Positions 26,278 to 44,955 of a stretch of 64,000 bases of DNA are shown here, piece by piece (within the stretch, counting starts at the first letter, position 1; every line of letters starts with the position of its first letter). This stretch comes from a virus (lineage: Duplodnaviria; Heunggongvirae; Uroviricota; Caudoviricetes). The notes under the pieces are model-generated. The model ran no database searches. It had not been told where the DNA came from and saw only the letters and a list, made by a program, of their open reading frames with translations. The stretch is taken from the IMG/VR virus record IMGVR_UViG_3300031993_004551, positions 1 to 64,000 of that record; one strand, given 5' to 3'. The position numbers and the translations under genes are program-made.

Positions 26278-28312
26278 TGTAGCTCCTCTTTGGAATGACG
26301 GCATCGTGCGCCTCTGTCTTTACTTCGACTACAGTGGACTCTTCGTTCACCGGGGCCTCTACCGGCTTCGGTTTTTCCTTGACCGGCTCAGTAAAGAACT
26401 TGATGAGCGTATCGCGGTCCATCTTGGTAAGGTCGAGGTCGACTTCACCCTGGTAATCCGCATTGACCGGATGGAAGCCAAATAGCTTGAGAACAGACAC
26501 GAGGCTAATCGTGCGGCCAATCTGCATAATGAGGGAGTCTACCATATTTACGGTATCGCCGTTCTTCATCGGGGCGCGGTTGTTACCGGTAGCCTTACCG
26601 ATGAGCATCACGAAGGAATGGTTAGCGATAGCAAGCGTAGTCCTCTTGGCGGCAATCCTGGAGTCAAGCTGAACGATAATTTCCTCGGGCTTCACCATGC
26701 ACTCCCCGTCTGCCAACGGGCAGGCATCCTTCTTGGCGAAGAACATACGGTAGCGCCCCTGCTTGGCCGAACCGCTGAACTGGTGGAGATTGAAGATGAC
26801 GCCACCATTAGCATAGCCACCGAAATAGATACATTCCGTTGCTTCCGGGTCAGCATTCGTCATGTCCCCGGAGTAGCGCAGATGGAACATCTTCTTCTTC
26901 GGGTCCTCGCCCGGGATATCCGACTTGAAGGTAGTATTCCAGGAAACAGTAGTGCCTTCCAAAGTGGACGCCGAGAGGTCAAAGTCATGCGTACCCCATT
27001 CGTTTCTCCAGTATACCCCAATTACATTGTGCTCGTAGCGGCGAAGCTTGGTACCCATCGGGTAGTCGCCGACGAAGTTTTTTTCGGAGGTCGGGAGCGC
27101 GACCGCGATATTATCGTCAACCTTGATGAACCCAGTCTTCTTCTTTTTGGTGATGAAGTTCGAGATAGACGCGATGATAAGACCCTGCACACTCTGGAGC
27201 CAGAGCATGGATTCCGGGGAACGCTTCGGAGCGTATCCCTTGCGGACAAAGAGTCTACCCGTACGGATAGTGTACACGCTATTCTGGAGAGGTCTCGGGG
27301 CAAGACGGTCGGCGACCGCCTGAAGGAGCCTGAGACGGCGGAACATCGGAGTCTTTTCGAGGGCTTCGGCAACGGCGTCAAGCTTGGCACGGTCACCCGG
27401 AACAAAAATGCAGTCGAGAACGCCCGGTTCATAAGGCTGTTTCAACTTCTTGGCAAGGTGGCTGATGCGGTTGATTGCCATATGGACGGAGTACTTTTCG
27501 ACATCGCCGTAGTCCACCCCGCGGAGCGCCATGAAAAGCTTCTTGAAGCGGAAGTAAACGGTAGCAAGGATTTTATACTCGGTCTCACCAAGGTTCTCGA
27601 AAATCTCGAGCAGTTCTTCATCGTTCTCGGTCGCCCGAATCTCCTGGCATGTCTTCTTGGTGTTCACCAGCATCGCGCTTCCGGTCGCCACATACACGAG
27701 GTAGCGAACGAATTCCACCGGGTCCGTGGGAGTAGTTGCCGTATCCTGATAAATCAGGCAGCGCGCTTCCCTGTTGCGGATTTCTGAAATGTCGCACCCG
27801 CCGTGGGCCTTGATATAACCATAAACGAGAAGCACCGTATCGGCACTGAGGGCAATCCCGGAAGCAAGCATCTTGATGCAGCGCTGCTTGAGTTCATCTG
27901 CAGTGACCGAAGGAATCGTGGTAAGCTTGCTGAAGTCGATTACATAGGTTTCCTGTTCGATTACCTTTTCAGTTTCACGGTTATTCGGCACATAGCCGTT
28001 CCCACAGGCAAAGTCCGTCCCGTAGGTGGACATATAGTGTACCATCTGGTCGAATGCAAGCTGGACTTCGGAGCGGCTTTCGATGTCGTTCCAAGCCTTG
28101 TAGAAGGTGCTGTTCGGGTCGGTAGCTGTATCGAGGAGCCAGTCGCGCACCAGTTCGGTACACGACTCGGGAGCCACCATGAATCCCCTCATGCAGGCGA
28201 GGCGGTTCACCTCGTTAAAGCTTACAAGTTCCCCGCATTCCCCGGGAACTACACAGTGGAACAACTTCAAAAGCTCCACCGGCATCACATATTTTTCAAT
28301 AGCTTCGGACAT
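26258..28312 (-). CDS. hypothetical protein (684 aa)
   Basis: Long ORF. Start at the internal ATG 28312 (MSEAIEK). 20-nt overlap with glf. Confidence 0.55.
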   Translation of the reverse strand: MSEAIEKYVMPVELLKLFHCVVPGECGELVSFNEVNRLACMRGFMVAPESCTELVRDWLLDTATDPNSTFYKAWNDIESRSEVQLAFDQMVHYMSTYGTDFACGNGYVPNNRETEKVIEQETYVIDFSKLTTIPSVTADELKQRCIKMLASGIALSADTVLLVYGYIKAHGGCDISEIRNREARCLIYQDTATTPTDPVEFVRYLVYVATGSAMLVNTKKTCQEIRATENDEELLEIFENLGETEYKILATVYFRFKKLFMALRGVDYGDVEKYSVHMAINRISHLAKKLKQPYEPGVLDCIFVPGDRAKLDAVAEALEKTPMFRRLRLLQAVADRLAPRPLQNSVYTIRTGRLFVRKGYAPKRSPESMLWLQSVQGLIIASISNFITKKKKTGFIKVDDNIAVALPTSEKNFVGDYPMGTKLRRYEHNVIGVYWRNEWGTHDFDLSASTLEGTTVSWNTTFKSDIPGEDPKKKMFHLRYSGDMTNADPEATECIYFGGYANGGVIFNLHQFSGSAKQGRYRMFFAKKDACPLADGECMVKPEEIIVQLDSRIAAKRTTLAIANHSFVMLIGKATGNNRAPMKNGDTVNMVDSLIMQIGRTISLVSVLKLFGFHPVNADYQGEVDLDLTKMDRDTLIKFFTEPVKEKPKPVEAPVNEESTVVEVKTEAHDAVIPKRSYNVRTKV

Positions 28313-28359
28313 CGTAAATCCTCGTAGATACAAAAAAGTACCGGCCACAGCCGATACTT

Positions 28360-28374
28360 TAAATATAGCAAAAA
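28360..28374 (-). promoter_or_regulatory. promoter motif variant (TAAATATAGCAAAAA, minus-oriented) 47 nt upstream of the ATG at 28312
   Basis: Motif match with TTTA in place of TTTG. Confidence 0.4.
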
Positions 28375-28384: not shown

Positions 28385-28897
28385 TTACGGCTTCAGCATA
28401 TTCCTGACAGTGGTAATAGCCTTGCCGAGAAGGTTCTGACCGCGCCAGTTAGCCTCGTCGTCAATGCCGTTGGCACCCATAGGCATCAGGATTCCCCAAA
28501 TTCCGTCTACCGGGGAAGCCTCGACGAAAGTCTTCCCGTCGAAGCGAGGGTCGAGCAACTTCTCCAGCAAATCCGGATTCTGCCGGTACTTCTCGAGATT
28601 GACCTGAATCATTATGTCGTACCGTACCTTGGCCCACTTTTCGTTATCAAACGGCTTCACCTGACGGCCAAGCGACTTGGCATCCATCGGGGTAGCCGCC
28701 TTGAGTATGGCGTCCGCCGTCCTGGTGTCGCCGAAGTAGTTCGCCTTTTCCCACATGAACGCCTGTTCCGTGCAGAAGAAAGTTTCCGTCTTCTTGGTTG
28801 TGCCGTCGATATGGCTGCTGTAGGCGAAGCTGCACCGCCTGAAGTTGGATGGCCATTCCTTGTAGAAGAATACATGCGTATCAGTGATATCCAGCAT
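28385..28897 (-). CDS. NADAR-domain protein (YbiA/DUF1768-like)
   Basis: FFYKEWPSNF...FCTEQAFMWEKA...WAKVRYDIM...GIWGIL matches the NADAR fold signature. Start at ATG 28897. Confidence 0.72.
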   Translation of the reverse strand: MLDITDTHVFFYKEWPSNFRRCSFAYSSHIDGTTKKTETFFCTEQAFMWEKANYFGDTRTADAILKAATPMDAKSLGRQVKPFDNEKWAKVRYDIMIQVNLEKYRQNPDLLEKLLDPRFDGKTFVEASPVDGIWGILMPMGANGIDDEANWRGQNLLGKAITTVRNMLKP

Positions 28898-28905
28898 GGC
28901 TACCC

Positions 28906-29529
28906 CTATGCGTCGTTGATGACGCGGCTGAGCCACCGTCCGAAACGGTTATCGTACATGTTAAGTTCCGGGAGATGCTTGGCGATAGCATCGATGCAAT
29001 CGCTGACGCACTCGTCGATACCCTTACGGCCATCCACATAGACCACCGGCGTATTCCCGAGGAACTTCTCGGTCTCCGCATACGCGGTACGCAAATTCTC
29101 GAGACGCCCCGGAGTTTCCTTGAGCTTGGGTTCGCGGTCATAGCAGGTCTCGAGCGGGGTCTCCATGAAGATGTACAGGTCGGGCTGCTTGAAGATGTTG
29201 AAGTCCTGATACAGCTCCTCGCAGAACGAATAGATGCTCGGGGAGAATGCCTTGGCATAGGCAAGCCCGCTCCATAGGTACCTGTCGAGCAGAACCATAT
29301 TCCCGTTGTAGAACTTCTGCTGACGGAGACGGCCTTCGAGGAAAAACACCTCGCGCTTGGCGTCCTTGCCCTTGAACTCGTCCGAGTTGAGCCGGTCAGC
29401 CTCCTCGGTGGAAAACAGGGGTTCCTTGCTCCACTTGAATTCCGGGTAGCGCTTGGCGATAATCTTGGAAATCGTGGTCTTGCCGGAGTTGTCCACGCCT
29501 TCAAACACGATAAGCGGATTATGCTTCAT
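28906..29529 (-). CDS. tmk: thymidylate kinase-like P-loop kinase
   Basis: P-loop IVFEGVDNSGKTT. LDRYLWSGLAYAKA resembles the dTMP kinase DRY..S..AYQ motif. Start at ATG 29529 (MKHNPL), not 29652. Confidence 0.68.
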   Translation of the reverse strand: MKHNPLIVFEGVDNSGKTTISKIIAKRYPEFKWSKEPLFSTEEADRLNSDEFKGKDAKREVFFLEGRLRQQKFYNGNMVLLDRYLWSGLAYAKAFSPSIYSFCEELYQDFNIFKQPDLYIFMETPLETCYDREPKLKETPGRLENLRTAYAETEKFLGNTPVVYVDGRKGIDECVSDCIDAIAKHLPELNMYDNRFGRWLSRVINDA

Positions 29530-30382
29530 TCTTCGGGCCCTCCTTGGGCTTCTGTAAACGGGTCTCCACGAGGGCAGTGGTCGCGTCAGCGTGAACAATA
29601 TTATATCCCGGGTATTTCCCTGACGCATTAAAGTTCTTGGTGTACGGGTCAATCTGCATCTGGATGGCCGGGGCGGTATACTGGATAAGCCCGGTACGGT
29701 GGCAAATCTTGGTGTTTGCGTGGTGGTAATGGCCGCAGCAGACGGTAGTAACCTTAGCGCTCTTCATAAGCACCCGGACGAACTCAAAGTTTACCGGAAG
29801 CGTGAACTGTTCCTGGTTCATGAAGCGGTGGAACGGACGGACAAGCGGCATATGAGTGAACGCAGTCATCGTATGTTCGCCGACATCTGGCATTGCCAAC
29901 AGGCGGAACAGCCCTTCGACCGGATAGTCCTTATGCGCCGTATCGAGCAGGCATAACCTTGTATTGGAACTCTTGCCCTTGGCAAATGCAATAGCCTGTC
30001 CCGGGACATTAAACGAGCCGTCGAACCGAAATTCGAAAAATGCATTCTTATTGTAAAGGTATACGAACTTTTTACGGAACGCCGTAAATGCTTCCTCAAG
30101 AGCAGCACGGTTATCGTGGTTACCCGGGGTTACCAAGATTGCCGGCTGATACTCTTCAGGCAAGTCCCCCCCGAACGCCCGTTGCAATCCCTCGAGAAGA
30201 TTAGTGTAATCTTCGACCGTAGCGTCATCCACGAGGTCGCCGGTAAGGACGATAAGGTTGTAATGGCTGTACTGCCTTCCGGCATCAGCCAGTACGGCGT
30301 CCAGGTTTCCCTGGACATCGAACATACCCTTCTGGTCCCCCTTGAGGTGTATATCCGAAAGTTGAAGTATTAATGATTCCAT
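29519..30382 (-). CDS. calcineurin-like metallophosphoesterase (CpdA/Icc-type cyclic nucleotide phosphodiesterase-like)
   Basis: Motif series SDIHL, GDLVDD, GNHDN, GHYHH. Confidence 0.7.
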   Translation of the reverse strand: MESLILQLSDIHLKGDQKGMFDVQGNLDAVLADAGRQYSHYNLIVLTGDLVDDATVEDYTNLLEGLQRAFGGDLPEEYQPAILVTPGNHDNRAALEEAFTAFRKKFVYLYNKNAFFEFRFDGSFNVPGQAIAFAKGKSSNTRLCLLDTAHKDYPVEGLFRLLAMPDVGEHTMTAFTHMPLVRPFHRFMNQEQFTLPVNFEFVRVLMKSAKVTTVCCGHYHHANTKICHRTGLIQYTAPAIQMQIDPYTKNFNASGKYPGYNIVHADATTALVETRLQKPKEGPKNEA

Positions 30383-30401
30383 AGGTTTCTAGGTTCCTTA
30401 T

Positions 30402-30869
30402 TTATTTGTAAACAATCTTGATTACATGCGGTGTTTCCAAGAACACTCCCTTGATTATCTCGGAGACGACCTCCCATTCCAACCGGTCAAGCCCGCAGCC
30501 GATTTTCGGCATCACGATGACCTTAGGCTCGGCAAAGTTCATCGCAAGGTACTGCCGAAACGCAACCAGGGACTTAGTGAGCGTAAGATAGGTCGGCTTA
30601 TCCCACGAATGCTCCTTCGTTATCAAGTTAATAAAAGTCCCTTTATCTGTAACGACCGGCATCGCCATTCCCGGGAACAAGTCGATAGTATTGCCTTCCG
30701 GGTTATTGCTGCACCTGTACCGGCACTTCTTTTCCGCATTGTACATATCGCGGATGATTACCGGGGCTATTCCGCTGCCCCATGCGAGGTCGGCCGCGAT
30801 GCAATGGGCAATGATTACTCCGGTCGTATCGACGGTCGTGATATCACGCTTTTCTTCAAAATATCTCAT
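30402..30869 (-). CDS. macro-domain protein (ADP-ribose binding/processing)
   Basis: VIIAHCIAADLAWGSGIAPVI resembles the macro-domain phosphate-binding loop (VVNAAN...G.GIA). Size 155 aa. Confidence 0.55.
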   Translation of the reverse strand: MRYFEEKRDITTVDTTGVIIAHCIAADLAWGSGIAPVIIRDMYNAEKKCRYRCSNNPEGNTIDLFPGMAMPVVTDKGTFINLITKEHSWDKPTYLTLTKSLVAFRQYLAMNFAEPKVIVMPKIGCGLDRLEWEVVSEIIKGVFLETPHVIKIVYK

Positions 30870-31713
30870 CGGCTTTAATTTCCTTCGTTATCAGGCGCGA
30901 ATAAAGGTTCGCGTATGCTTTAAACTCCTCGGCATCGATGAACGGCCCAAGATTCACTACCGGGTTGTTATGCTCGTTCACCACCTCGAATACGCACTGC
31001 GGATGTTCTTTAGTAGCGCGGTAGTAGGTATTCTTCTTGAGCAGGAGAATCTTCCTCGTCGTATATGGCGTATTGGCATAGTTGATTGCCATGCCATAAT
31101 TGCCCTCAAATGCTATCCCGTAACCGTTGCCAAGCTTAAGTCTAGGGAACAACTTGCGGTCGGACGCATCCTTGCCGCATATTTTCTTAACCCATACAAG
31201 AAAACGGTAATCCTCGTCGTGGTAGGCATTCCATATCCGGGAAACCTCCTGCACACTCTCCACGCCCAGTTCGGAGTCTTCCGTTATCATATAACGGACG
31301 CCTTCCGGAATATCAACAATGCGAAGCGTATTGTTGTCGTTCAGCTTGTCGAGCATCTTGTAGTCGCCACCGAGAGCATCCACATAGGAAACAAGGGTGT
31401 CGCGCAGTTCGCTACCGGTAGTGTCAAAAGAAAGGTTCACCGATGCGGTATCGGGCACATCTCCATGTAGAGGATTACCGGAATCGTCATAGCAGGACTT
31501 TGTAGCGTTAAAGTGGACAAGCCAAGCCTTGATGAGCTTGCTCGAACCCCCGAAAACAGCCAAGGCTTTCCCGTTGGAGTCCGCAGGTAAAAAATAAGGG
31601 TCGGGGGATACGGTATCCCCTACCCTTTCGGCCAAATACATTGCCGCCCCGAGAGATATCTGGGGTACGCCGATACTTGTCGAGACGAGCACCTTTGGCA
31701 TTATACGCCCCAC
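30856..31713 (-). CDS. hypothetical protein (285 aa) inside the NAD island
   Basis: ORF overlapping both neighbours (14 and 13 nt). No recognisable motif. Confidence 0.5.
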   Translation of the reverse strand: MGRIMPKVLVSTSIGVPQISLGAAMYLAERVGDTVSPDPYFLPADSNGKALAVFGGSSKLIKAWLVHFNATKSCYDDSGNPLHGDVPDTASVNLSFDTTGSELRDTLVSYVDALGGDYKMLDKLNDNNTLRIVDIPEGVRYMITEDSELGVESVQEVSRIWNAYHDEDYRFLVWVKKICGKDASDRKLFPRLKLGNGYGIAFEGNYGMAINYANTPYTTRKILLLKKNTYYRATKEHPQCVFEVVNEHNNPVVNLGPFIDAEEFKAYANLYSRLITKEIKADEIF

Positions 31714-32486
31714 TTCGGAATACGGACGATATCGCGCTTGAACTGCGATGCCTTTACACGGGCCTGGATTTTACCCAAAACGCCAATATTAAGTGTTTCC
31801 GGATTATTGACATAAGTCCGGATGTCATCGTAAGTAAAGCCGAGGTTGTCCTCGTCCGTCTTACCACTGAGGCCGTCGGACGGAGCCTTGTAGACAAGAT
31901 GTTCCGGGAGGCCAAGCGCCATTCCCAGCTTGCAGACATCCTGCTTGAACAGGGTACCAATCGGAGCCAAATCGCCAGCAAGGTCGCCCCACAAGGTACA
32001 GTATCCGACGAGAGCTTCTGAGAAGTTTCCCGTGCAGAGAACGCGGCCTTCACCGAGCGCCTGTGCAACCATGTACAGCTTTTCCATACGGATACGCGGG
32101 GCGAGATTGATTTCTGCCTGACGGTCATACATGTGCTTCGTACCGAGACCCTTGATGAGTTCAATCTGCTTCAGCCCAATCTGGTAATCGTCGTGGATGT
32201 TGATTGTAAGCGTACGGGTAATCCCGGCAGCTACTGCACAATTGTGAGCATCTTCAAGGTCTGGCTGGACTCCGTTCGGGAGGAACACGCCGATTACCTT
32301 GTCCGCGCCTAAAGTCCTCGTGGCAAGCTTGCCGACAACCAAGGAGTCGGTTCCGCCGGACATACCGAGAACGAGAAATTCGCCGTGATTTTCTTGCATC
32401 GTGAGCTTAATCCACTGTCCGATGCTATCGGCCATTTCGATGAACTTGGCGGTTTCTTCTTCAGTCATTTTATCTGGCGTGAGCAT
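31701..32486 (-). CDS. nadE: NH3-dependent NAD+ synthetase
   Basis: PP-loop LVLGMSGGTDSLV. Downstream LCTGNFSEALVGYCTLWGD is characteristic of NadE. Start at ATG 32486 (TAATG coupling to pncA). Alternative ATG at 32467. Confidence 0.85.
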   Translation of the reverse strand: MLTPDKMTEEETAKFIEMADSIGQWIKLTMQENHGEFLVLGMSGGTDSLVVGKLATRTLGADKVIGVFLPNGVQPDLEDAHNCAVAAGITRTLTINIHDDYQIGLKQIELIKGLGTKHMYDRQAEINLAPRIRMEKLYMVAQALGEGRVLCTGNFSEALVGYCTLWGDLAGDLAPIGTLFKQDVCKLGMALGLPEHLVYKAPSDGLSGKTDEDNLGFTYDDIRTYVNNPETLNIGVLGKIQARVKASQFKRDIVRIPKWGV

Positions 32487-33106
32487 TATGCGGCTCCTTT
32501 GTAAATAGTGGGGACGACATCGCAGAGCATGGAACGGGCAAGCGTGAATGCCGCTTCCTGAGCCTGCTTGTTCTGTTCGGCATTGATGAAGCAAGCCGCA
32601 GTAGCACCGTCGACCACCTCAATTTTTGCATCCGGGAACCAAGCGCGGTCGATTGCCCAGTTGGAGGCATCACAGATGTCCGTGCAGGTACCGGTATAGC
32701 GAATGACGATGTTCTTGCCACGGGTAAGTGCGGCAACGGCATCCTGGTCCGTAGAGTCGATATCGAACATAACCTTCGGCCAGTTGATGAAACCAAAGTT
32801 ATGCTTGTCGATGATGATGGCATTCTTCTTCTTGAGAGCAGCCATGATTCTCGGCTCGATTTCCCATTCCGGTGTGCCGTAGACACAGTGAATCGGGAGA
32901 CGCTTGCCTTCAATAGACTGGTAATAGGAATCGTCGTCGAAGTGCGTATCGCGGGTGGCGATAATGATGCCGTCCCACGCCTCGATTTCGGCGATTACGG
33001 CGTCAATGATGGCTTCTGCAGCCGGATTCTTGAGGACTCCGGTTATGAATCCTATCTGCATGTCGATTACTTTGAGAATCTTGAGAGCTTTATCTATCAG
33101 GTTCAT
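32486..33106 (-). CDS. pncA: nicotinamidase (isochorismatase/cysteine hydrolase family)
   Basis: VIDMQIGF (D), conserved K region, GTCTDICD catalytic Cys. Confidence 0.82.
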   Translation of the reverse strand: MNLIDKALKILKVIDMQIGFITGVLKNPAAEAIIDAVIAEIEAWDGIIIATRDTHFDDDSYYQSIEGKRLPIHCVYGTPEWEIEPRIMAALKKKNAIIIDKHNFGFINWPKVMFDIDSTDQDAVAALTRGKNIVIRYTGTCTDICDASNWAIDRAWFPDAKIEVVDGATAACFINAEQNKQAQEAAFTLARSMLCDVVPTIYKGAA

Positions 33107-33121
33107 TTTTGCTTCTGTTGG

Positions 33122-34777
33122 TTATAAGCGTATTCCGCCGAAAAGGCCACACTGGTCTACTCGGTCAAGCGGTTGTTTCTTGATTCCATCCGGGAACTTC
33201 CTAATGTAGTCGTCGAGGATGCGGTTGTGGTGGAAAGCCAGCTGCATCTTCTGCGCATCGGAGATAGCAACCCACTGGACTTCCTTGGCGTCATCGGCAG
33301 GTTCAGCCCCGATGATATGCGGAATTTCAACGGCGAGACCCACATCGTATGCGCCGTGGTCTGGCTTGATGCCTGCGCGGGGGTCCGTCGGATAGTAGAC
33401 GCCGACACACTCGACTTCGGACTTGTCGATTGTGGTGATACTCGTCTCTTCCTTGACCTCGCGTAGTGCGGCTTCCTCGATATCCTCACCCGGGTCGGCG
33501 AATCCGCCCGGGAAGCACCAGTAGCCCATATACGGGCCATACTTCCTGCGGACAAGAAGGACGAATCCCTTGGAAACAATCAGAGTAGTCGCCGTCACGG
33601 AGAATGACGGGTAGTTATCCGGGTTTGCACGGGCAATCGCTTCCTTCTCGGCGGCATCGTATTCTTCCTGGGTAACCTGCCCGTACAACTTATTGTCAAC
33701 GATGTACTCGAGGGCTTCGCCCGGAACATCGGTACCGGCATACATCGGGTTGTGCAGGAGATTGAACCGTGCCTGCGTAGAGGATGTCGCCGGTATCCTG
33801 GCATTGACAATCCTGAGACGCTCCCCGACATCATCGTTGGGACGGTTAATCCTCCGGTCATTTAACGGAATGTCATTGCGCCCGAACACCATGAAGGAGA
33901 ACTGGGTAAGCAATTCCTCGCTATGCTCCCACCGGTGGAAATCGTGGAGCATACGCCATTCATCGGCGCCCATGCAGATGGTGACCTTCGACGGGTCAAG
34001 TTTGAGGGTTTCGGTGAGGAACTGGTATGTGCGCACCGGCTGTTCGACAATCTGAACAACATTGTCATCCTCGGCCCAACGGTCGGAATAACGACAAATT
34101 TCCTGAAATACTGTACGGAGCATGCGCTTTCGTGTGCCTGCCCTTACAGTATATTTCTTTTCGTCATTATTACTTACCATAAGGATGAGTGCAACCGGAA
34201 GAGGTCTATCGATATCAACCGGCTTAAACCTTTCGTTGGCAATCGCAATCATCTGGTTCAACAGGGCACGGATAATTTCCTTGTGACCGGTTGTCACCGG
34301 GTCGAACGCTCCTCCGTAAACAAGGATGTGCTTCGCATTGCGAACATTGTCATACAGAGTGACCTTATCCTTGACCTCAGCCGGCTTATCATGTAACGAC
34401 ATAACTGCAAACGACTTCTTTGCAAAGGACTTGGCAACTTCAACAGACTTGTTAAACACCGTGTAAAACAGGTCGCCCGGTGTTAAATCGATATCACACG
34501 ACTGGAGCACCTTAGAAGTCCTCTGGCGGCCCAAATCGTTAAGTTGTCCGGCAGCTTCTGCAATTCCATAGGCTTCCTTGCGGTCGACAAAGCGGAAATT
34601 GTTGCTATCTTCGCCGGCAATAAAGCCAGTACAGCTAGGTACATCGCTTGCAACCCATTCGTAGTCATCCTTGAGAGACATCAGGTTCATAGATGCATCG
34701 CCGTGGTCCTTCGCGACTGCAAACGGCTGACTGAAATTAGGGGCAAATCCCTTGAATGCACAGATAATCTTTTCCAT
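33122..34777 (-). CDS. nadM: nicotinamide/nicotinate mononucleotide adenylyltransferase fused to Nudix hydrolase, with extra N-terminal domain
   Basis: YGGAFDPVTTGH is the (H/T)xGH nucleotidyltransferase motif. C-terminal Nudix box GGFADPGEDIEEAALREVKEETSI. About 160-aa unassigned N-terminal region. Confidence 0.82.
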   Translation of the reverse strand: MEKIICAFKGFAPNFSQPFAVAKDHGDASMNLMSLKDDYEWVASDVPSCTGFIAGEDSNNFRFVDRKEAYGIAEAAGQLNDLGRQRTSKVLQSCDIDLTPGDLFYTVFNKSVEVAKSFAKKSFAVMSLHDKPAEVKDKVTLYDNVRNAKHILVYGGAFDPVTTGHKEIIRALLNQMIAIANERFKPVDIDRPLPVALILMVSNNDEKKYTVRAGTRKRMLRTVFQEICRYSDRWAEDDNVVQIVEQPVRTYQFLTETLKLDPSKVTICMGADEWRMLHDFHRWEHSEELLTQFSFMVFGRNDIPLNDRRINRPNDDVGERLRIVNARIPATSSTQARFNLLHNPMYAGTDVPGEALEYIVDNKLYGQVTQEEYDAAEKEAIARANPDNYPSFSVTATTLIVSKGFVLLVRRKYGPYMGYWCFPGGFADPGEDIEEAALREVKEETSITTIDKSEVECVGVYYPTDPRAGIKPDHGAYDVGLAVEIPHIIGAEPADDAKEVQWVAISDAQKMQLAFHHNRILDDYIRKFPDGIKKQPLDRVDQCGLFGGIRL

Positions 34778-34781
34778 AGCT

Positions 34782-34813
34782 CAAATATAGCAAAAATCCC
34801 CGTTTCCGGGGAT
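34782..34813 (-). promoter_or_regulatory. overlapping terminator hairpin (34796-34813) and promoter motif (34782-34796). ATG of nadM lies 4 nt downstream
   Basis: ATCCCCG-TTT-CGGGGAT hairpin. Its 3' T-run is the TTTTT of TTTTTGCTATATTTG. Confidence 0.55.
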
Positions 34814-34823
34814 TCTTTTAAGT

Positions 34824-36074
34824 CTAATCGGGTAGTCCGGTGTACTTCTTTCCGGTATCCACGCGCTCAAACTTCGGCATCGTGAGCTTTACCGCCATGA
34901 AGTAATCCTCGCCCATAGGTGTCGCGTTCGGGATAGCCCTTACCGCAATCAGTGATGAAGACTCATCGCGGTATATCTGAATATACAGCTCGCCGTTCTC
35001 GCCGCGGTCACCATTGTAGTACAGGAGACGCTGACCATCCGCTGTGCAAAGCTCCTTGCGGAAATCCTTGTCCAGCGTCGCGTGTAGAACATGCGTCTCG
35101 GGGTTGTACGAACGCTCACAGCCGGCGCCGGAATACCCCTCCACCAACGCAAGCAGCATATAGGCTTCGTCAATGTGGCACTGCGATGCAACCGTAGGGT
35201 CATGCTGGCGCAACTGGTAGTGAATCTCGGTAAGCCTTGCGAGAAGCGCGGGAACCTTCGGGGAACGGTCCGCGACAGCCTGCATCGCGCCGTTCAGCGT
35301 ATCCCAGAACACATCAAGGATGTCCAGGGTCTTCGAGCGGAATTCCCGGTATACCCTGTCGATATCGGCCGTGCACTCGTTGTACTTTTTGATGACCGTC
35401 TTGGCGGCACGGTCAATGTAGTCGAAGTCACTTTCGTCAGGATGCTTCGCCTCGTCGATTACTGTGTAGTCATCGAGAAGGCATTCCACAATCCTTTCAG
35501 GACCCTTTACATTGCACCGGAATCCAAACTTACGCGGAACCAAGATATCATTGTCGACAATATTAATCAGGGAATTCGCCCCGAGCATGGAAATCTTGCG
35601 GATACCCTCGATATTTTCGTTTACAAGGATGTTCCCGTCAAGCATTCCCTGCATCGTCTTCCTACCGGGATTAAACCATTCTGCGGACGAAACCTGTGAC
35701 AACAGGATATGGAACCGGTTCATAGCAACCTTTGCTTCTTCTGCCGTCTCATCGGTAAAGGTATGGTCCTTGAAGTCACGGTAGGACGGCTTCGGCTTAT
35801 AGGTCTTTTCATTATCGAGAGTCATCCCGAAGTTCTCGATAATGTAGTTCCTTGCGTCGGCTATAGCCTCCTCGGGCCGTTTCATATCACGGTTAATCAC
35901 CATAGCCCTGCCATGGGGCTGCCGCTTGTTGAACTTGATGCCGAACCCGTAACGGGTAACATTCAGCGTACCGACGACCTTGCAGGCATTTTCACCATCC
36001 GTATCGACAATATCAGCGGAAAAAAGAAGGAATGGCTTTGGAGCCACCCCTTCCTCGAATATCACAGTACGCAT
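34824..36074 (-). CDS. hypothetical protein (416 aa), translationally coupled to pncB
   Basis: Start ATG overlaps the pncB stop (TAATG). No recognisable motif. Confidence 0.6.
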   Translation of the reverse strand: MRTVIFEEGVAPKPFLLFSADIVDTDGENACKVVGTLNVTRYGFGIKFNKRQPHGRAMVINRDMKRPEEAIADARNYIIENFGMTLDNEKTYKPKPSYRDFKDHTFTDETAEEAKVAMNRFHILLSQVSSAEWFNPGRKTMQGMLDGNILVNENIEGIRKISMLGANSLINIVDNDILVPRKFGFRCNVKGPERIVECLLDDYTVIDEAKHPDESDFDYIDRAAKTVIKKYNECTADIDRVYREFRSKTLDILDVFWDTLNGAMQAVADRSPKVPALLARLTEIHYQLRQHDPTVASQCHIDEAYMLLALVEGYSGAGCERSYNPETHVLHATLDKDFRKELCTADGQRLLYYNGDRGENGELYIQIYRDESSSLIAVRAIPNATPMGEDYFMAVKLTMPKFERVDTGKKYTGLPD

Positions 36075-37492
36075 TAGGCAGCCACCTCGAACTCGTCGAT
36101 GATATTACCCTTCGGGTCAAACTTAACCAGTTTTCCACCGTAGATAATCTCATCGAGCTGCTTACGGCTGAAGCGGTCAATCGGAGCCCAGTTGTATGCG
36201 AGCTTTGTATCGATGATTGTCTTCTGGTCGGTGCACATGCACTTGCCTTCACTGTCGGAAAGCTTGACGACATGCTGGCCGTTGCATTCGGTGACCTTCA
36301 TCACGATGGGCAACGGCTGCTTTGCACCCGGCTTGCAGCAGATTGTGGCAGAGAGGAATGTACCGATACCGAATGCGACATTGATATCCTTGTAGAACTC
36401 CCAGGCAATCTTGAGTGCCTTGTCCGCATCCAAGCTGTCGCTCCAGCAGGCCGTCTTGGACTTCGGGTCGACCTTTCCACGCCTGTAGTGGTCGATGAGC
36501 ATGTGCCCCCACTTGAACGGGTCGCCGCTGTCGTGGCGGCAGCCGTCGTAGAGCTTCATGAAGGACACGTCGAAGTCGCGGAGGAACGCAGCGAAACCGA
36601 AGTTGTCGCTCAAGGCGATACCGAGGGAACCGCGGAACTCGTCGTCCCAGTTGGAAAGGACCCACTTCTGGGCGTCCTTCAGGCGAATGCCCTTTGCCTG
36701 TGCGATTGCGTAAAGCTCGTGGGCAAATGTGCCAATCGCTTTACAGTCGCACTTGATTGCGAGCCAGACGTTGGATGTTCCCACGAATGCCGGGCAGAAC
36801 TTGAGGAGGTACATGACCATGTACTCGTTCCACTCGTTGCTGATGCCACGGCGGACACCGAAGTCGGAAACCGTGAAGCGGCATCCTTCGCGCCAAGCCT
36901 TGTTCCACTTGACGACGACTTCCTCGAGGTTCTTCTTGGCGTATTCCCAGTCGAACTCCTCGCCCTCGAAGTAGAGCTGCTGCACAATCTGCAGCACATA
37001 TATTTCGAACCAGAACACATCGAGCTGCGGACCTTCGGCAACGATGCGGACGCCGCCGTTCACGGACGGGTCGGCGAATACGCGGATGTACTTGCGGTCA
37101 AGCTGGAGCTTCTCGAGGTAACGGATGAAGTCATCGCTGAGCCACGGGAGCTTCTTGCGGATGCCCTCGATTTCTTCCTTGGTGTAGCGCAAGGTGCAGA
37201 GCCAGTCGAGTTCGGCACAGATGTCCTCAATGAGATAAGTGAGGTCTACGCCCTTCGTACGGAGGCAGAATTCCCATTTAGCCTTATCATTATAACAGCG
37301 ATGCTTGTAGAACTGACCCATTGAGTATTTATAAGTATCTGTTTGGGTCAGATGCTCAATGATATGCTTATCCGGGTTGCGCCGGGTAAACTTCTTGATA
37401 GCCTTCGTGATAATCTTCTTGCGCTTCGGACGGGTCTTGAACGGGTCAATTCCCTTCTTGAGCAAAGCCTTGTCACTTAGTTTCCGTGTCAT
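36074..37492 (-). CDS. pncB: nicotinate phosphoribosyltransferase
   Basis: TDTYKYSMGQ, WFVGTSN, GTFAHELY, LGIALSDNFGFAAFLRDF, GCRHDSGDP and KVTECNGQHVVKLSDSEGK all match E. coli PncB blocks. Extra 40-aa basic N-terminus. Confidence 0.9.
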   Translation of the reverse strand: MTRKLSDKALLKKGIDPFKTRPKRKKIITKAIKKFTRRNPDKHIIEHLTQTDTYKYSMGQFYKHRCYNDKAKWEFCLRTKGVDLTYLIEDICAELDWLCTLRYTKEEIEGIRKKLPWLSDDFIRYLEKLQLDRKYIRVFADPSVNGGVRIVAEGPQLDVFWFEIYVLQIVQQLYFEGEEFDWEYAKKNLEEVVVKWNKAWREGCRFTVSDFGVRRGISNEWNEYMVMYLLKFCPAFVGTSNVWLAIKCDCKAIGTFAHELYAIAQAKGIRLKDAQKWVLSNWDDEFRGSLGIALSDNFGFAAFLRDFDVSFMKLYDGCRHDSGDPFKWGHMLIDHYRRGKVDPKSKTACWSDSLDADKALKIAWEFYKDINVAFGIGTFLSATICCKPGAKQPLPIVMKVTECNGQHVVKLSDSEGKCMCTDQKTIIDTKLAYNWAPIDRFSRKQLDEIIYGGKLVKFDPKGNIIDEFEVAA

Positions 37493-38699
37493 TTTCGTTA
37501 TCCCTGTTGATGTTTTCCTGTTTAAATTCCTGCATTTTCAGATTCTCCAAGGTTACCTTGCGCATACCCTTGTAGATACTCTCGCGGATGGCCATCCAGC
37601 CTTCCTCGGATATCGAACCATTCAATGCCCACCGTCCCGCCGAAGCGGCCGCGCCGATGACCGTCGGGTAATCGTCGAACTCCTTGCGAGCCAGCTCGTA
37701 AACCGCCCGGCCGGCGTCAACCTTGTCGCTAACACATCTGTCGGCGAATCCCTGTATACGAGTATACAAGCTGTCGAAGATTTCGCCGAAGCTTTTCAGG
37801 AACGCCTTAATGTCCACCAGTTCCTCCGGGACGCTCTTGACGGTTTCGTCCGGGAACTTCCCGTCCTTCCACGAGAATATATCCAAGAGGTTCCTCGGGG
37901 TGAGGCTGTGGAACAGCTTCTGCGCGGCAAGGAACTCCGGACCCTTGAGCTTCACCTTGAACCCGTCGCCGTAGGTAAGGACGAGCCCTTCCTTGCTTGC
38001 CGGCAGCTTCTTGACATACTCGCAGGTAGCCTCGAAGGACGGAAGCTCGATGCGCTCGGCGAGAGGCACTCCCATCGCCTTGGCAATCATCTTCAGGTTC
38101 TCGTAGGAATATTCCCTGCCGGTAGCATTCAGGATTACCCCGGTAAGCACACAGGCCTCGTAGTCGTACCTGATAGGATGGACATCCTCCTTGCAGAGAA
38201 TCTCGAACATATAGGTACATCCGGAAGCCATGTAGTTCTGGATTCCCCTCTCGCGGAGCCACTTTTCGGCCCATTCGCCCTGGAAAGCCGTGAATGCACC
38301 CGAAGTGGTTACCAAAAGATTCCCGTCGACGATACCCGCGATGCACAGCGAACCGTCAAGCTTGTCGGTCGCGCTGAACCATCCTTTCGGGTCGAACTTC
38401 GGCTCGTACCCGGGAATCTTGCTGAGCAGGTCGAACAGCGAAGTATGCTGCATCGTCTCGCTATAGAGTTCCCCGAAGTTGAAGAACTTGGACCACGGGC
38501 GCAGTACGCACTCGCCGTCGCTGACCCTAAATACATGCCCCCTCGAGTTGAGGGTGATTTCGTCCCATCGCTGGTCGTATATCGTGTACTCGGTATACTT
38601 GAACTTGACATATTTCCTGTCAGGCGAATATGTCATGATTAAGTCCGGGCCGTCGGCACGGGCGATATACTCGGAAAGCGGGGGTAATTTTTCTACCAT
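37473..38699 (-). CDS. RNA ligase, T4 Rnl1 family
   Basis: LNSRGHVFRVSDGECVLRPWSKFFNFGE resembles T4 Rnl1 [31 protein letters not shown]. Motif I TDKLDGSL resembles KEDGSL. Confidence 0.85.
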   Translation of the reverse strand: MVEKLPPLSEYIARADGPDLIMTYSPDRKYVKFKYTEYTIYDQRWDEITLNSRGHVFRVSDGECVLRPWSKFFNFGELYSETMQHTSLFDLLSKIPGYEPKFDPKGWFSATDKLDGSLCIAGIVDGNLLVTTSGAFTAFQGEWAEKWLRERGIQNYMASGCTYMFEILCKEDVHPIRYDYEACVLTGVILNATGREYSYENLKMIAKAMGVPLAERIELPSFEATCEYVKKLPASKEGLVLTYGDGFKVKLKGPEFLAAQKLFHSLTPRNLLDIFSWKDGKFPDETVKSVPEELVDIKAFLKSFGEIFDSLYTRIQGFADRCVSDKVDAGRAVYELARKEFDDYPTVIGAAASAGRWALNGSISEEGWMAIRESIYKGMRKVTLENLKMQEFKQENINRDNENDTETK

Positions 38700-41724: not shown

Positions 41725-42438
41725 TTATTCCAGCGCGACTACCGGATGTCCCTCGCACAGCCCGTGGTAGACATGGTTGGCCGTGTAGAGCTTTTCCGCC
41801 GGTATCGGGGCGTAGGCGACTTCCCAGGACACATTGTTCTGCATCTTGAAGTCCTTCCACGGGAGGGAGCTGAACCGTTCCTCCTCATGGGTATGCCCGT
41901 GTACAAGCACGGTCTTCGCCGGGTCGAGCTTCTGCCGGTACGCCATCAGGTTCCTGGAATCCGGACGGTCCACCTGACGCTTCGAGAAGAACGGAAAGTG
42001 CTGACAGAAATACACCTTGTCGTGCCAACGCAGTACGGCGTAGTCCCTGATGTCGACCAGGCCGCCATGTACGCTCTTGTCGTGGTTCCCGCGGATGTAC
42101 AGCTTGATACCCGGGAGCGGACCGTACAGAGCGTTGAACTTCTCGTCGAATTCCTCCTGCGTATCGGAGTGCCCCATCATGAAATCACCGAGGAACACCA
42201 CGACATCATCCGGCCGAATCAGCGTCATCCACTTATTGCGCATGTCGTCGTTCATTTCCTTAGTAGTCTGGTATGTCCGGATACGCTCGAAGTGCTTCGG
42301 GGACGCCGGAGTGAGCTTTGCGTGATTGAAATGGGTATCCGATATGAAGAACAGCCTGGAGCTATCCGGGATGACCTGGGAGAAATATGTTCGTTCGGAC
42401 TGTTCGTCCGGAATTGAAAGATTTAAAACTTCAGACAT
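41725..42438 (-). CDS. calcineurin-like metallophosphoesterase (lambda phosphatase-like)
   Basis: ISDTHFNH, GDFMMG, GNHD, VHGHTH. Start at ATG 42438 (MSEVLNL). Confidence 0.7.
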   Translation of the reverse strand: MSEVLNLSIPDEQSERTYFSQVIPDSSRLFFISDTHFNHAKLTPASPKHFERIRTYQTTKEMNDDMRNKWMTLIRPDDVVVFLGDFMMGHSDTQEEFDEKFNALYGPLPGIKLYIRGNHDKSVHGGLVDIRDYAVLRWHDKVYFCQHFPFFSKRQVDRPDSRNLMAYRQKLDPAKTVLVHGHTHEEERFSSLPWKDFKMQNNVSWEVAYAPIPAEKLYTANHVYHGLCEGHPVVALE

Positions 42439-44901: not shown

Positions 44902-44955
44902 AGATAAGCAAAATGTCCACAGAACGCTTAATTTGCCCGTCAGCATTCCGTGGAC

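Follow-up and report, generated by a model that had tools for sequence, protein, structure and literature searches.

A tightly packed gene cluster on the minus strand

The window, as we call the whole 64-kb stretch of DNA that was analysed, carries ten ORFs on its minus strand between positions 28385 and 37492 that lie head-to-tail, are tightly packed and show no internal stop. The contiguity on one strand described in an earlier note on this DNA is borne out, and of its two gene counts the ten of the text is right and the nine of the title is not. Adopting the gene-caller coordinates of the source contig moved the starts of four longest-ORF calls, in each case shortening the gene (NADAR to 170 aa, the Tmk-like kinase to 207 aa, NadE to 261 aa, and an ORF rightly called unassigned but given as 285 aa to 281 aa). 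The features are, in the direction of transcription:

37473 to 38699, minus: T4 Rnl1-like RNA ligase, a context gene (PF09511 7e-12, phrog_562 4.5e-37)
36074 to 37492, minus: PncB, nicotinate phosphoribosyltransferase, 472 aa; predicted reaction NA + PRPP (+ATP) to NaMN
34824 to 36074, minus: unk416, 416 aa; TAATG overlap of its start codon with the stop of pncB
34783 to 34817, minus: terminator-like hairpin (34817 to 34792), then promoter-like motif TTTTTGCTATATTT
33122 to 34777, minus: 551-aa fusion of an N-terminal region, a NadD-like adenylyltransferase and a Nudix domain, by profile matches and motifs
32486 to 33106, minus: PncA, nicotinamidase, 206 aa; predicted reaction Nam to NA + NH3
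31701 to 32486, minus: NadE, single-domain NAD+ synthetase, 261 aa; predicted reaction NaAD to NAD+
30856 to 31701, minus: unk281, 281 aa, translationally coupled to nadE
30402 to 30869, minus: TARG1/DarG-type macrodomain, 155 aa; predicted ADP-ribosyl glycohydrolase or ADPR-derivative hydrolase
29519 to 30382, minus: predicted class-III metallophosphodiesterase (CpdA/Rv0805/GpdQ-like; Metallophos), 287 aa
28906 to 29529, minus: thymidylate-kinase-like (Tmk-like) P-loop kinase, 207 aa (PF02223 3e-14, above the Pfam cut-off)
28385 to 28897, minus: NADAR-domain protein, 170 aa; predicted DNA-guanine ADP-ribosyl glycohydrolase, AdfN-like
28361 to 28374, minus: the promoter-like motif again, just past the NADAR stop

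The source element is a phage, as its T4-type terminase, Dda helicase, RNA ligases, IF3 homologue and PHROG matches show, a large one and probably from the rumen or gut. Biosynthetic and other genes of the same phage include the IF3 homologue, ClpP, a UDP-galactopyranose mutase and the thymidylate kinase. Because the co-oriented minus-strand run spans ~24.0 to 38.7 kb, well past the island edges, and also holds the RNA ligase, a 696-aa ORF of no assigned function and the UDP-galactopyranose mutase, co-orientation alone is uninformative as evidence for an island.

Four predicted enzymes of NAD+ synthesis

Profile searches and active-site checks back the earlier assignments of PncA, PncB, an adenylyltransferase-Nudix fusion and NadE, and the full route from nicotinamide (Nam) through nicotinate (NA), NaMN and NaAD to NAD+ is encoded with catalytic residues intact. 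PncB matches PF04095 (6.8e-56), PF17767 (4.8e-22) and the curated equivalog TIGR01514 (327 bits, cut-off 270); it aligns over its full length with E. coli PncB (35% identity, 2e-69), with His258 at the position of the phospho-histidine His220, and its dN/dS is 0.05–0.06. PncA belongs to the isochorismatase family (PF00857, 35 bits, cut-off 27), and the best PDB matches of its family profile are nicotinamidases (1ILW 7.5e-18, Pnc1 6e-16, Mtb PncA). Its Asp15/Lys101/Cys145 triad and its metal ligands Asp53/His55/His73 are invariant across 23 homologues, at a dN/dS of 0.06–0.10.

The fusion protein opens with ~145 aa to which no function could be assigned. The adenylyltransferase domain that follows matches PF01467 (1.2e-7) and the NadD model TIGR00482 (2.9e-15; at 57 bits below the cut-off of 112), its best PDB match reaching only 0.011, and the Nudix domain matches PF00293 above the Pfam cut-off (2.5e-20) and the NadM-Nudix structures 2QJT and 2QJO at ~1e-10. 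Motifs lie at residues 155–165 (GGAFDPVTTGH), 332–337 (SSTQAR) and 425–444 (Nudix box). The protein is predicted to be a NadD-like NaMN/NMN adenylyltransferase joined to a Nudix domain of the ADP-ribose-pyrophosphatase type. Labelling the adenylyltransferase NadM, as had been done, was wrong, since it is NadD models that this domain matches and only the Nudix half is NadM-Nudix-like; a NadD-like enzyme, for which NaMN is a fitting substrate, also suits the nicotinate arm better than a NadM. NadE, finally, matches PF02540 (1e-47) and the curated equivalog TIGR00552 (173 bits, cut-off 64), has an SGGTDS PP-loop at residues 43–48 and lacks a glutaminase domain; it is predicted to be of the ammonia-dependent type.

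ADP-ribose-handling and other neighbouring genes

Profile searches and active-site checks also support the proposed NADAR, Tmk-like, CpdA-like phosphodiesterase and macro genes. The NADAR protein matches PF08719 (9e-41, 140 bits, cut-off 35) and TIGR02464 (125 bits, cut-off 74), has homologues in 719 GenBank phage records and is ~39% identical over its full length to NADARs of E. coli phages such as tuntematon and Schickermooser. The macro domain gave no Pfam match; the protein matches human TARG1/OARD1 structures (6e-15), the DarG NCBIfam model (8e-7) and phrog_335 (1.6e-20), its Lys85 (ITK) and Asp128 (GCGLD) align with the catalytic pair of TARG1, and it is 52–55% identical in distant relatives. 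In the phosphodiesterase, which matches PF00149 above the Pfam cut-off (1.4e-12), the CpdA model below its cut-off (5e-14) and, by profile, Rv0805, GpdQ and Icc at ~1e-8, all five metallophosphoesterase motifs are invariant.

The Tmk-like kinase looks like an ordinary thymidylate kinase, judging from its TIGR00041 match (5.6e-16, below the cut-off), its GVDNSGKTT P-loop and DRY motifs and its PDB matches, all 15 of which are thymidylate kinases (best 2e-8); distant relatives are 62–65% identical. For unk281, neither family profile searches nor a PDB profile search gave a match, and its AF2 model has a pLDDT of 38, too low to use. Its dN/dS is 0.15–0.23, and distant relatives carry homologues of 26–29% identity at ~3 kb upstream of pncB. 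Profile searches assigned no family to unk416.

Junctions and probable transcription units

The three stop/start junctions claimed before are all present (TAATG at PncA/NadE and at PncB/unk416, an 11-nt overlap at Metallophos/Tmk), and we found three further ones, namely TAATG at NadE/unk281, which gives NadE such coupling at its two ends, a 14-nt overlap at unk281/macro and a 20-nt overlap of the Rnl1 stop with the pncB start. Overlapping stop and start codons link PncA-NadE-unk281-macro and, separately, Metallophos-Tmk.

The TTTTTGCTATATTT motif behind the terminator-like hairpin ends 5 nt ahead of the NMNAT-Nudix ATG. It occurs 15 times in the 64-kb window (0.58 copies expected), every copy lying 5–27 nt upstream of an ATG, and resembles the Bacteroidota -7 box. 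Hairpin and motif make it probable that the island is split into two transcription units, pncB-unk416 and the other eight genes; pncB is parted from the other three pathway genes by unk416, the hairpin and the motif. The copy past the NADAR stop is the probable start of the next minus-strand unit, unk696-GLF-unk370.

Conservation in relatives and in other phages

The whole ten-gene order is kept in three related contigs (L003, L011 and L012) at 44–99% amino-acid identity, an arrangement that chance alone would not explain; there, too, Rnl1 is followed by pncB, and across these relatives all island genes are under purifying selection (dN/dS 0.05–0.27). A core of pncB, NMNAT-Nudix, pncA and Metallophos is found again in jumbo-phage contigs of more distant relationship, whose lineages include assemblies of up to ~470 kb, with homologues of the Tmk-like, macro and unk281 genes nearby and a PnuC gene near the same cluster. 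NadE, NADAR and unk416 are absent from the 20-kb neighbourhoods of these distant relatives. Only some lineages thus have the complete pathway, and the distant core would depend on host NadE. The same enzyme set is found in independent phage lineages (IMG/VR contigs L020, L036, L040 and L074, and Sinorhizobium phage Phosso), as contiguous NMNAT-Nudix/PncB/PncA/NadE sets in L020 and L036.

Relation to described NAD+ pathways

The cluster is real and conserved, and similar clusters are already known from gut jumbo phages. Li et al. 2024 (Microbiome, PMC11662467) described 174 "NAD-jumbo phages" from the gut that carry salvage or Preiss-Handler pathways, including a pncB-nadD-nadE cluster and mention of a phage pncA, and proposed roles in NAD+ self-supply and in countering NAD+ depletion. 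In view of these clusters and of those in L020, L036 and Phosso, the earlier note overstated its case for a distinct, undescribed solution. Like ours, the phages of Li et al. are large animal-gut phages with clustered pncB, nadD and nadE, and the predicted hosts of their Kuafu clade are Bacteroidota, whose -7 box the motif resembles. Their report is based on KEGG/BLAST annotation only, describes clusters that start from nicotinate, with pncA only in passing, whereas the cluster here starts from nicotinamide, and does not discuss a Nudix fusion or NADAR, macro and phosphodiesterase neighbours. In our literature search, we found no paper that tests a four-step phage route or ties a nicotinamidase to counter-defence, nor one describing an NAD+ pathway with NADAR and macro genes both beside it.

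Among the phage NAD+ pathways NARP1-3 (10.1101/2024.02.11.579819, PMC13464706), NARP2 (Nampt plus Nmnat-Nudix, like NadV-NatV of Vibrio phage KVP40) was shown to overcome NAD+-depleting defence and shares with our cluster the start from Nam and PRPP and the Nudix-fused adenylyltransferase at its end. It takes two steps via NMN, however, where four via nicotinate are encoded here; PncB (NAPRTase_N domain, TIGR01514) replaces Nampt, and nicotinamidase and NAD+ synthetase are added. NARP1 and NARP1-AP (Adps plus Namat, with or without the macro-domain phosphatase Adpp) likewise rebuild NAD+ from NADase products and can include a macro-domain gene in the operon (10.64898/2026.01.28.702374), but the PRPS-like Adps and NAMPT-like Namat are absent here, ADP-ribose recycling would be only indirect, through predicted Nudix cleavage to ribose-5-phosphate, and our macro protein is called TARG1-like by comparison with TARG1, not with Poa1p/Adpp. 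NARP3 (PnuC plus NadR-like; PMC13464706) also restores NAD+, but from imported nicotinamide riboside rather than nicotinamide, and PnuC/NadR were not found in this window. Orphan antitoxin-like phage NADARs (AdfN, PMC11825919) and a DarG/TARG1-type phage macrodomain (AdfM, PMC13309987) resemble our two genes, whose action on ADP-ribosylated DNA is predicted from sequence; the macro protein is only ~22% identical to PhiKZ gp104.

The PncA-PncB-NadD-NadE salvage of E. coli and Salmonella comprises the same four reactions and enzyme families, whereas here they are phage-encoded, clustered beside ADP-ribose hydrolases and include an adenylyltransferase fused to Nudix and an extra N-terminal region. 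The cultured jumbo phage Phosso (PV764938), of an unrelated lineage with an alphaproteobacterial host, carries NadE, PncB, Nudix, NMNAT and an isochorismatase-family hydrolase within ~6 kb. This hydrolase is annotated just as 'hydrolase' and has the PncA signature residues. In Phosso, Nudix and NMNAT are separate genes in another order, whereas they are fused here, and no NADAR or macro gene is annotated across the 13.2-kb stretch examined, whereas both are present here.

Proposed role and competing explanations

We read the locus as a deamidating Nam salvage and ADP-ribose-removal module, most probably directed against NAD+-depleting or ADP-ribosylating defences, and give this reading a probability of roughly 0.55. 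PncA would convert nicotinamide to nicotinate, PncB would combine nicotinate with PRPP to NaMN, the NadD-like domain of the fusion would form NaAD, and single-domain NadE would complete NAD+ with free ammonia as nitrogen source. The fused Nudix domain most likely cleaves free ADP-ribose to AMP and ribose-5-phosphate, by which the second product of NADase action would re-enter the pools of PRPP and ATP; making PRPP would remain a task of the host, and no PRPP synthetase is encoded nearby. The macrodomain and NADAR most likely remove ADP-ribose groups from proteins or DNA, like the anti-DarT proteins AdfM and AdfN, though the former could be an ADPR-1''-phosphatase or O-acetyl-ADPR deacetylase and the latter a YbiA-type N-glycosidase. 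Degradation of a nucleotide, either cyclic or derived from ADPR, may be the task of the class-III phosphodiesterase. During infection the module would preserve or restore cellular NAD+ and reverse ADP-ribosylation, a counter-defence role that the analogous NARP1-3, AdfN and AdfM make plausible; the Tmk-like gene, unk281 and unk416 may be bystanders. The four-step route is dearer in ATP than NAMPT-based salvage.

A less probable explanation that still carries some weight is a general metabolic booster, in which more NAD+ is supplied for NAD+-dependent processes of phage or host (replication, repair, redox) and the ADP-ribose hydrolases deal with products of NAD+-consuming enzymes belonging to the phage itself. 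Li et al. 2024 read their clusters mainly in this way (PMC11662467), very large phages commonly carry biosynthetic genes, as the IF3 homologue, ClpP, UDP-galactopyranose mutase and thymidylate kinase illustrate here, and the deamidating route is the usual bacterial housekeeping salvage. Yet we recognised no NAD+-dependent ligase, ADP-ribosyltransferase, Sir2 or Tpt1 within the 64-kb window, the start from Nam together with an ADPR pyrophosphatase, NADAR and a DarG-type macrodomain fits the recycling of NADase and ADP-ribosyltransferase products, and every experimentally studied phage NAD+ pathway (NARP1-3) serves counter-defence.

Treating all ten genes as one functional unit, as initially proposed, is without support, given the ordinary-looking kinase, the two unassigned ORFs and the promoter-like split. 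It is rather improbable that the module comprises just four or five NAD+ genes, with the Tmk-like, phosphodiesterase, NADAR, macro and two unassigned genes as independent neighbours in a co-directional early/middle block. The extent of the minus-strand run, its division by the promoter-like motif, the exclusively thymidylate kinase matches of the kinase, and the unrelated ORFs that in L004 and L008 part the macro, Tmk-like and unk281 homologues from the NAD genes all point that way; against it, pncA has Metallophos as its immediate downstream neighbour even in relatives where identity falls to 26–29%, homologues of the macro, Tmk-like and unk281 genes remain no more than 10 kb away from one lineage to the next, stop/start overlaps tie NadE-unk281-macro and Metallophos-Tmk, and macro domains adjoin NAD+ pathway genes in the unrelated phages L030, L034, L041 and L082. 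It is unlikely, lastly, that NadE acts like the NMN synthetase of Francisella and makes NMN from NaMN by amidation, with the adenylyltransferase then turning NMN into NAD+ and the Nudix domain trimming NAD(H) levels instead of recycling ADP-ribose. The substrate preference of NadE and of so divergent an adenylyltransferase is beyond what sequence settles, and the closest solved relatives of the Nudix domain are NadM-Nudix enzymes from NMN-using organisms, but the adenylyltransferase matches models of NaMN-preferring NadD and not NadM, and the canonical order from NaMN through NaAD to NAD+ is the commoner one in bacteria.

Gene layout and probable transcription units

Between 28385 and 37492, the minus strand carries ten head-to-tail ORFs with zero internal stops that encode, in order of rising coordinates, NADAR, a thymidylate-kinase-like (Tmk-like) protein, a metallophosphoesterase (Metallophos), a macro domain protein, unk281, NadE, PncA, an NMNAT-Nudix fusion, unk416 and PncB (unk281 and unk416 being two ORFs without family). 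The earlier note had announced nine genes in its title and listed ten in its text, and ten is the number found in the sequence. Two source contigs, one an ENA metagenome contig of 108,958 bp and the other from a Logan assembly, carry gene calls for the same proteins, and by these calls four genes are shorter than their longest ORFs, as listed here.

Island genes revised by gene calls
28385-28897, minus strand: NADAR, 170 aa
28906-29529, minus strand: thymidylate-kinase-like protein, 207 aa
30856-31701, minus strand: unk281, 281 aa
31701-32486, minus strand: NadE, 261 aa

The three stop/start junctions that had been claimed (nadE/pncA, unk416/pncB and kinase/phosphoesterase) are all present, and three further junctions are coupled as well, with a TAATG between NadE and unk281, a 14-nt overlap of unk281 and the macro gene and a 20-nt overlap of the upstream RNA ligase gene and pncB. 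The edges of the island are partly arbitrary, as the minus-strand run goes on downstream with genes for a 696-aa unknown (unk696), a UDP-galactopyranose mutase (GLF) and a 370-aa unknown (unk370) and upstream with a T4 Rnl1-like RNA ligase gene (Rnl1). A scan of the window for the motif TTTTTGCTATATTT found 15 copies, compared to 0.58 expected, and every copy lies 5 to 27 nt upstream of an ATG.

Copies of TTTTTGCTATATTT(G) in the window
First eight: 1751, 6835, 9587, 12147, 13386, 15117, 23998, 28361
Last seven: 34783, 43684, 46438, 47770, 52269, 56741, 58334

One copy follows a terminator-like hairpin between unk416 and the NMNAT-Nudix gene (34783-34817) and another is found directly after NADAR (28361-28374). 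The motif is probably the phage's promoter, and the TAnnTTTG inside it would, going by the known promoter consensus, resemble the Bacteroidota -7 box. If TTTTTGCTATATTT does act as a promoter, which its placement suggests, the region would fall into three probable transcription units, i.e., ...Rnl1-pncB-unk416, NMNAT-Nudix-pncA-nadE-unk281-macro-Metallophos-Tmk-NADAR and unk696-GLF-unk370, and a number of genes would have almost no leader. A hairpin precedes some of the motif copies. The annotated GTG start of the unk696 gene (26258-28348) lies inside a hairpin 3' of the promoter-like motif, and an ATG 12 codons downstream (MSEAIEKY...) is the likelier start; its product has no detectable family and is kept in the three close relatives of the window (contigs L003, L011 and L012).

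The four predicted enzymes of the nicotinamide-to-NAD+ route

Profile searches support the proposed identities of PncA, PncB and NadE, with PF00857, TIGR01514 and TIGR00552 all above their cut-offs. PncA is the weakest of these calls (35.0 bits with the isochorismatase-like PF00857 against a cut-off of 27, and no NCBIfam match), and we therefore built a family alignment of 23 sequences. The best PDB matches of the resulting profile are Pyrococcus horikoshii PncA (1ILW; 7.5e-18) and yeast Pnc1 (6e-16), followed by the nicotinamidases of S. pneumoniae, A. baumannii and M. tuberculosis. The triad Asp15-Lys101-Cys145 is invariant across the 23 homologues and aligned to the motifs of 1ILW, and the metal site Asp53/His55/His73 (DxH ... 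HCV) is likewise invariant and aligned to the motifs of M. tuberculosis PncA and Pnc1. An Asp/His/His metal site sets nicotinamidases apart from other cysteine hydrolases, and the protein is predicted to hydrolyze nicotinamide to nicotinate.

PncB matches both PF17767 and PF04095 and passes the equivalog model TIGR01514 (327.3 bits, cut-off 269.55). Over the full length it shares 35% of its residues with E. coli PncB (2e-69), and its His258 aligns with His220 of that enzyme, presumably, as in the Salmonella enzyme, the autophosphorylated histidine. NadE passes its model as well (PF02540 1e-47; TIGR00552 173.4 bits, cut-off 63.65), with the PP-loop SGGTDS at residues 43-48. It is a single-domain protein without glutaminase (CN-hydrolase) domain, to which the long glutamine-dependent models align with their synthetase part only, and should therefore use free ammonia.

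The 551-aa fusion (33122-34777, minus strand) consists of an N-terminal region of ca. 145 aa without assigned function, a divergent adenylyltransferase and a Nudix domain. Its adenylyltransferase part carries the (H/T)xGH and SxxxxR motifs as GGAFDPVTTGH (155-165, with TTGH) and SSTQAR (332-337), scores below cut-off with the NadD model TIGR00482 (2.9e-15; 56.8 bits, cut-off 112.45) and finds a NaMNAT as its best PDB match at only E = 0.011, which makes it a divergent relative, NadD-like and not an equivalog. The earlier note had called this gene NadM-Nudix, and the Nudix half of that label holds; NadM does not, as all matches to NadM-Nudix models and PDB entries are confined to residues ca. 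356-527 in the Nudix half and the N-terminal half matches NadD models. The Nudix box is intact (GFADPGEDIEEAALREVKEE at 425-444; PF00293 2.5e-20). Among solved structures, the domain is closest to the ADP-ribose-pyrophosphatase (Nudix) part of the NadM-Nudix enzymes from Francisella and Synechocystis (2QJT and 2QJO), and ADP-ribose is a candidate substrate.

Accessory proteins

The NADAR protein is firmly assigned (PF08719 140.3 bits, cut-off 35.1; TIGR02464 124.8 bits, cut-off 73.7) and has homologues in 719 GenBank phage records. It shares ca. 39% identity with NADARs of E. coli phages, among them tuntematon and Schickermooser, which we take to be Vequintavirus-type phages. Anti-DarT1 activity of a NADAR protein (AdfN, with AdfN-Bas60 as the tested protein) has been shown for phages of the Vequintavirinae (Johannesman et al. 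2025, PMC11825919), and by homology the protein studied here may be an AdfN-like guanine-DNA de-ADP-ribosylase that rescues from DarT1. The macro protein gave no match to the Pfam Macro model at E <= 0.01 and is matched by human TARG1 (4J5Q; 6e-15) and a DarG model (7.8e-7), with Lys85 and Asp128 conserved and aligned with the catalytic Lys and Asp of TARG1. Its similarity to the anti-DarT factor AdfM of phage PhiKZ is weak.

In the Metallophos protein, the five metallophosphoesterase motifs (D10xH12, GD49, GNHD at 87-90, H177 and GH218xH220) are invariant across five homologues, and its nearest relatives are Rv0805, GpdQ and Icc. With 52.3 bits it stays below the cut-off of 225 of the CpdA model NF008359, and we therefore place it as a putative class-III phosphodiesterase at superfamily/subfamily level only. 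The Tmk-like kinase has a P-loop and a DRY motif and scores above cut-off with PF02223 (53 bits, cut-off 27) and below it with TIGR00041 (58.8 bits, cut-off 83.25). Since all of its PDB matches are thymidylate kinases and the DRY motif is present, a nicotinamide-riboside kinase is ruled out.

For unk416, a word-index search returned one near-identical protein and an exhaustive HMMER search eight proteins, none with a known domain; its AF2 model has a pLDDT of 73. A protein search with unk281 found close relatives only, a profile that included its distant homologues had no match in the PDB, and its AF2 model is unusable (pLDDT of 38).

Conservation among relatives

The gene order from Rnl1 to NADAR is entire in three other contigs (L003, L012 and L011), with amino-acid identities from 99% down to 44% and, in L011, a 283-aa version in place of unk416. 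Pairwise dN/dS ranges from 0.05 to 0.27 across all eleven genes, with the smallest values in PncB, PncA, macro, Tmk, NADAR and NadE. The cluster that the earlier note had observed is thus confirmed by the integrity of its genes, their families and their synteny, and we add conserved active sites and, from dN/dS, purifying selection.

In more distant relatives, whose PncA is 56 to 62% identical and whose lineages include contigs of up to ca. 470 kb, the genes pncB, NMNAT-Nudix, pncA and Metallophos are consecutive, and genes for the Tmk-like protein, the macro protein, an unk281 homologue, PnuC and galactopyranose mutase are all found within 10 kb. NadE, NADAR and unk416 are absent from the 20-kb neighbourhoods of these relatives. 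The conserved core would therefore make NaAD and rely on the host's NadE, and the lineage of the window has gained nadE, which completes the route. The genes for PnuC, a nicotinamide riboside/NMN transporter, in the distant relatives L004 (1031-1597) and L008 (2147-2725) lie ca. 5-6 kb from pncB. The Tmk-like protein of the same two contigs has an extra N-terminal region of ca. 110 aa that is absent in the window. The gene for UDP-galactopyranose mutase (25135-26277 in the window) stays ca. 10 kb or less from the NAD+ genes also in L004, L008 and two further contigs (L013 and L016), which points to a larger region of auxiliary genes with conserved synteny.

The pathway in other phages

A megablast search with the island against 50,697 GenBank phage records returned a single 61-bp match only, and PncB alone as query found no IMG/VR locus. 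By pattern scan, at least 487 IMG/VR stretches encode a PncA of this kind. Among the best 80 of these loci, NadE lies within 10 kb in 65 and a PncB-type gene in 13; NMNAT-Nudix, PncB, PncA and NadE are contiguous on two IMG/VR loci (L020 and L036), with a similar arrangement on L040 and L074. In GenBank phage records, we counted 13 with PncB, 6 with PncA and 45 with NadE. The phages with PncB include Agrobacterium phage Atu_ph07, Sinorhizobium phage Phosso and several huge metagenomic phages. Phosso, a cultured jumbo phage (PV764938), encodes NadE, PncB, Nudix and NMNAT within ca. 6 kb (L095 4572-10213) together with a protein annotated solely as "hydrolase", an isochorismatase-family member with the catalytic and metal-binding residues of PncA. 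From its sequence, this cluster is a second, independent and complete nicotinamide-to-NAD+ set.

A different association is common in gut and IMG/VR phages, where a PncA-like gene lies beside Adps-like (PRPS-like), NAMPT/Namat-like and NadE genes.

PncA-like genes with NARP1-type neighbours
L028, 10010-13666
L034, 7042-10522
L094 (Phage Phass-1, OQ749652), 7001-11439

Many gut phages thus possibly carry a deamidated variant of NARP1, i.e., an operon of this type extended by nicotinamidase and NAD+ synthetase, and our literature search found no paper on such an operon.

Relation to known systems and possible function

Among the outcomes of bacterial anti-phage defence, NAD+ depletion is one of the most frequent. 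Experiments have so far proven three phage pathways for rebuilding NAD+ (NARP1, NARP2 and NARP3; also NARP1-AP with a macro-domain phosphatase), and none of them uses the nicotinate arm. The island differs from all three. Neither PRPS-like Adps nor NAMPT-like Namat domains of NARP1 are found in any of the ten genes. NARP2 combines Nampt (NAMPT_N and NAPRTase) with Nmnat, whereas the phosphoribosyltransferase of the island has NAPRTase_N, passes the PncB equivalog and matches phrog_448 (Nampt) only at 3.5e-10, so the island is not NARP2. With regard to NARP3, PnuC proteins of the relatives had no tblastn match in the window, and its gene tables contain no PnuC-like or NadR-like Pfam match. The NARP papers searched mention neither nicotinamidase nor PncB nor NadE, and our literature search found nothing that ties nicotinamidase to phage NAD+ reconstitution.

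Bioinformatically, the NAD+/ADP-ribose conflict repertoire of jumbo phages has been described to comprise macro, NADAR, Nudix and calcineurin-like phosphodiesterases as well as NadV with NadM or NadR, the nicotinate arm not being included (Iyer et al. 2021, 2022). Li et al. (2024, PMC11662467) described complete salvage or Preiss-Handler pathways in 174 "NAD-jumbo phages" of the gut, including a pncB-nadD-nadE cluster, with Bacteroidota hosts for one clade, and suggested a role against NAD+ depletion. The earlier note was essentially right about the identities of the genes for the four enzymes, but its "distinct solution" is of a kind already noted in these gut jumbo phages. The cluster is therefore not categorically new and is rather a well-preserved, unusually complete example, in which the pairing with both classes of anti-DarT-like hydrolase (NADAR and macro) is an interesting enrichment.

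From sequence, we infer all enzymatic activities and the phenotype of the island, which most likely lets the phage salvage nicotinamide to NAD+ by a deamidating route. Alongside this salvage, the Nudix domain would break down free ADP-ribose, and the macro and NADAR proteins would take ADP-ribose off macromolecules. By analogy with NARP1-3, AdfN and AdfM, we favour a role in counter-defence, with a probability of roughly 0.55. Its main rival is a general role in NAD+ supply, and if the route fails against defences, the cluster would be another case of housekeeping metabolism in very large phages. A looser reading takes the module to be the NAD+ genes only. The last two steps might also run in Francisella-type order, in line with the relatives of the Nudix half, and the NadD type of the adenylyltransferase suits a nicotinate-arm pathway better than NadM.

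The counter-defence role can be extended to a fourth, mechanistically distinct pathway of phage NAD+ reconstitution ("NARP4"), which strikes us as rather unlikely. Nicotinamide freed by NADase defences would be routed through nicotinate and ADP-ribose recycled via the fused Nudix domain, in a single counter-defence island that would unite the two known types of DNA de-ADP-ribosylase acting against DarT (NADAR and macro) with a signal-degrading phosphodiesterase and in which the 281-aa and 416-aa proteins, both conserved and translationally coupled, would act as novel components of the pathway or as inhibitors of defence. The cluster is valuable as a clean candidate for experiments on NAD+ reconstitution through the nicotinate arm: Together with its IMG/VR relatives and the cultured Sinorhizobium phage, the locus offers a concrete and complete gene set for asking whether the classical four-step route of bacteria also serves phages in counter-defence. 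It raises another question, i.e., whether the NADAR/macro pairing confers protection from NAD+-depleting and DNA-ADP-ribosylating systems alike. Should the route work, there would be more anti-defence genes to seek in gut and rumen viromes.

Two other explanations were considered. The genes are no phage-borne defence system, as the NCBIfam anti-phage models DS8, DS9 and DS32 score 31-40 bits compared to cut-offs of 240-790. A Tpt1-linked RNA-repair circuit behind the macro and Metallophos genes (ADPR-1'',2''-cyclic phosphate processed by a cyclic phosphodiesterase and then a macro phosphatase) is a weak possibility, since no Tpt1/KptA was recognised within the 64-kb window.

Phage identity and other genes of the window

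The window is from a phage, with genes for a T4-type large terminase, a Dda-like helicase, an Mre11-like exonuclease, two RNA ligases, PhoH and a Thg1-like enzyme; the terminase, PHROG matches and IMG/VR relatives rule out bacterial or plasmid origin. Related PncA genes are found on IMG/VR viral contigs of 250-350 kb and the same proteins elsewhere on contigs of up to ca. 470 kb.

Other genes in the window
2994-4337, plus strand: TnpB/IS605-family gene
43771-44946, minus strand: TnpB/IS605-family gene
47933-49165, plus strand: TnpB/IS605-family gene
62142-63815, minus strand: TnpB/IS605-family gene
51552-52241 and 57575-58141: translation initiation factor IF3 homologue and ClpP protease
37473-38699, 52326-53669, 41725-43666, 15161-16048 and 16425-17258: RNA-repair set

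The RNA-repair set comprises the Rnl1-like ligase overlapping pncB, a second RNA ligase, RlaP, the Thg1-like enzyme and an extra Nudix protein, and the RlaP gene is adjoined by a Metallophos_2 phosphoesterase. The TnpB gene at 43771-44946 shares 90-91% identity with copies on rumen MAG contigs, some labelled Fibrobacter and others Prevotella, so the habitat is probably the rumen, with labels that conflict on the host. The Fibrobacter-labelled MAG has two TnpB copies on one 37-kb contig, and such contigs may be mis-binned phage contigs or have shared mobile elements. Finally, GC content drops to 0.36 at 58001-60000, compared to ca. 0.50 elsewhere, which coincides with an HNH/RRXRR endonuclease ORF (58738-60021) that is probably a recent insertion.
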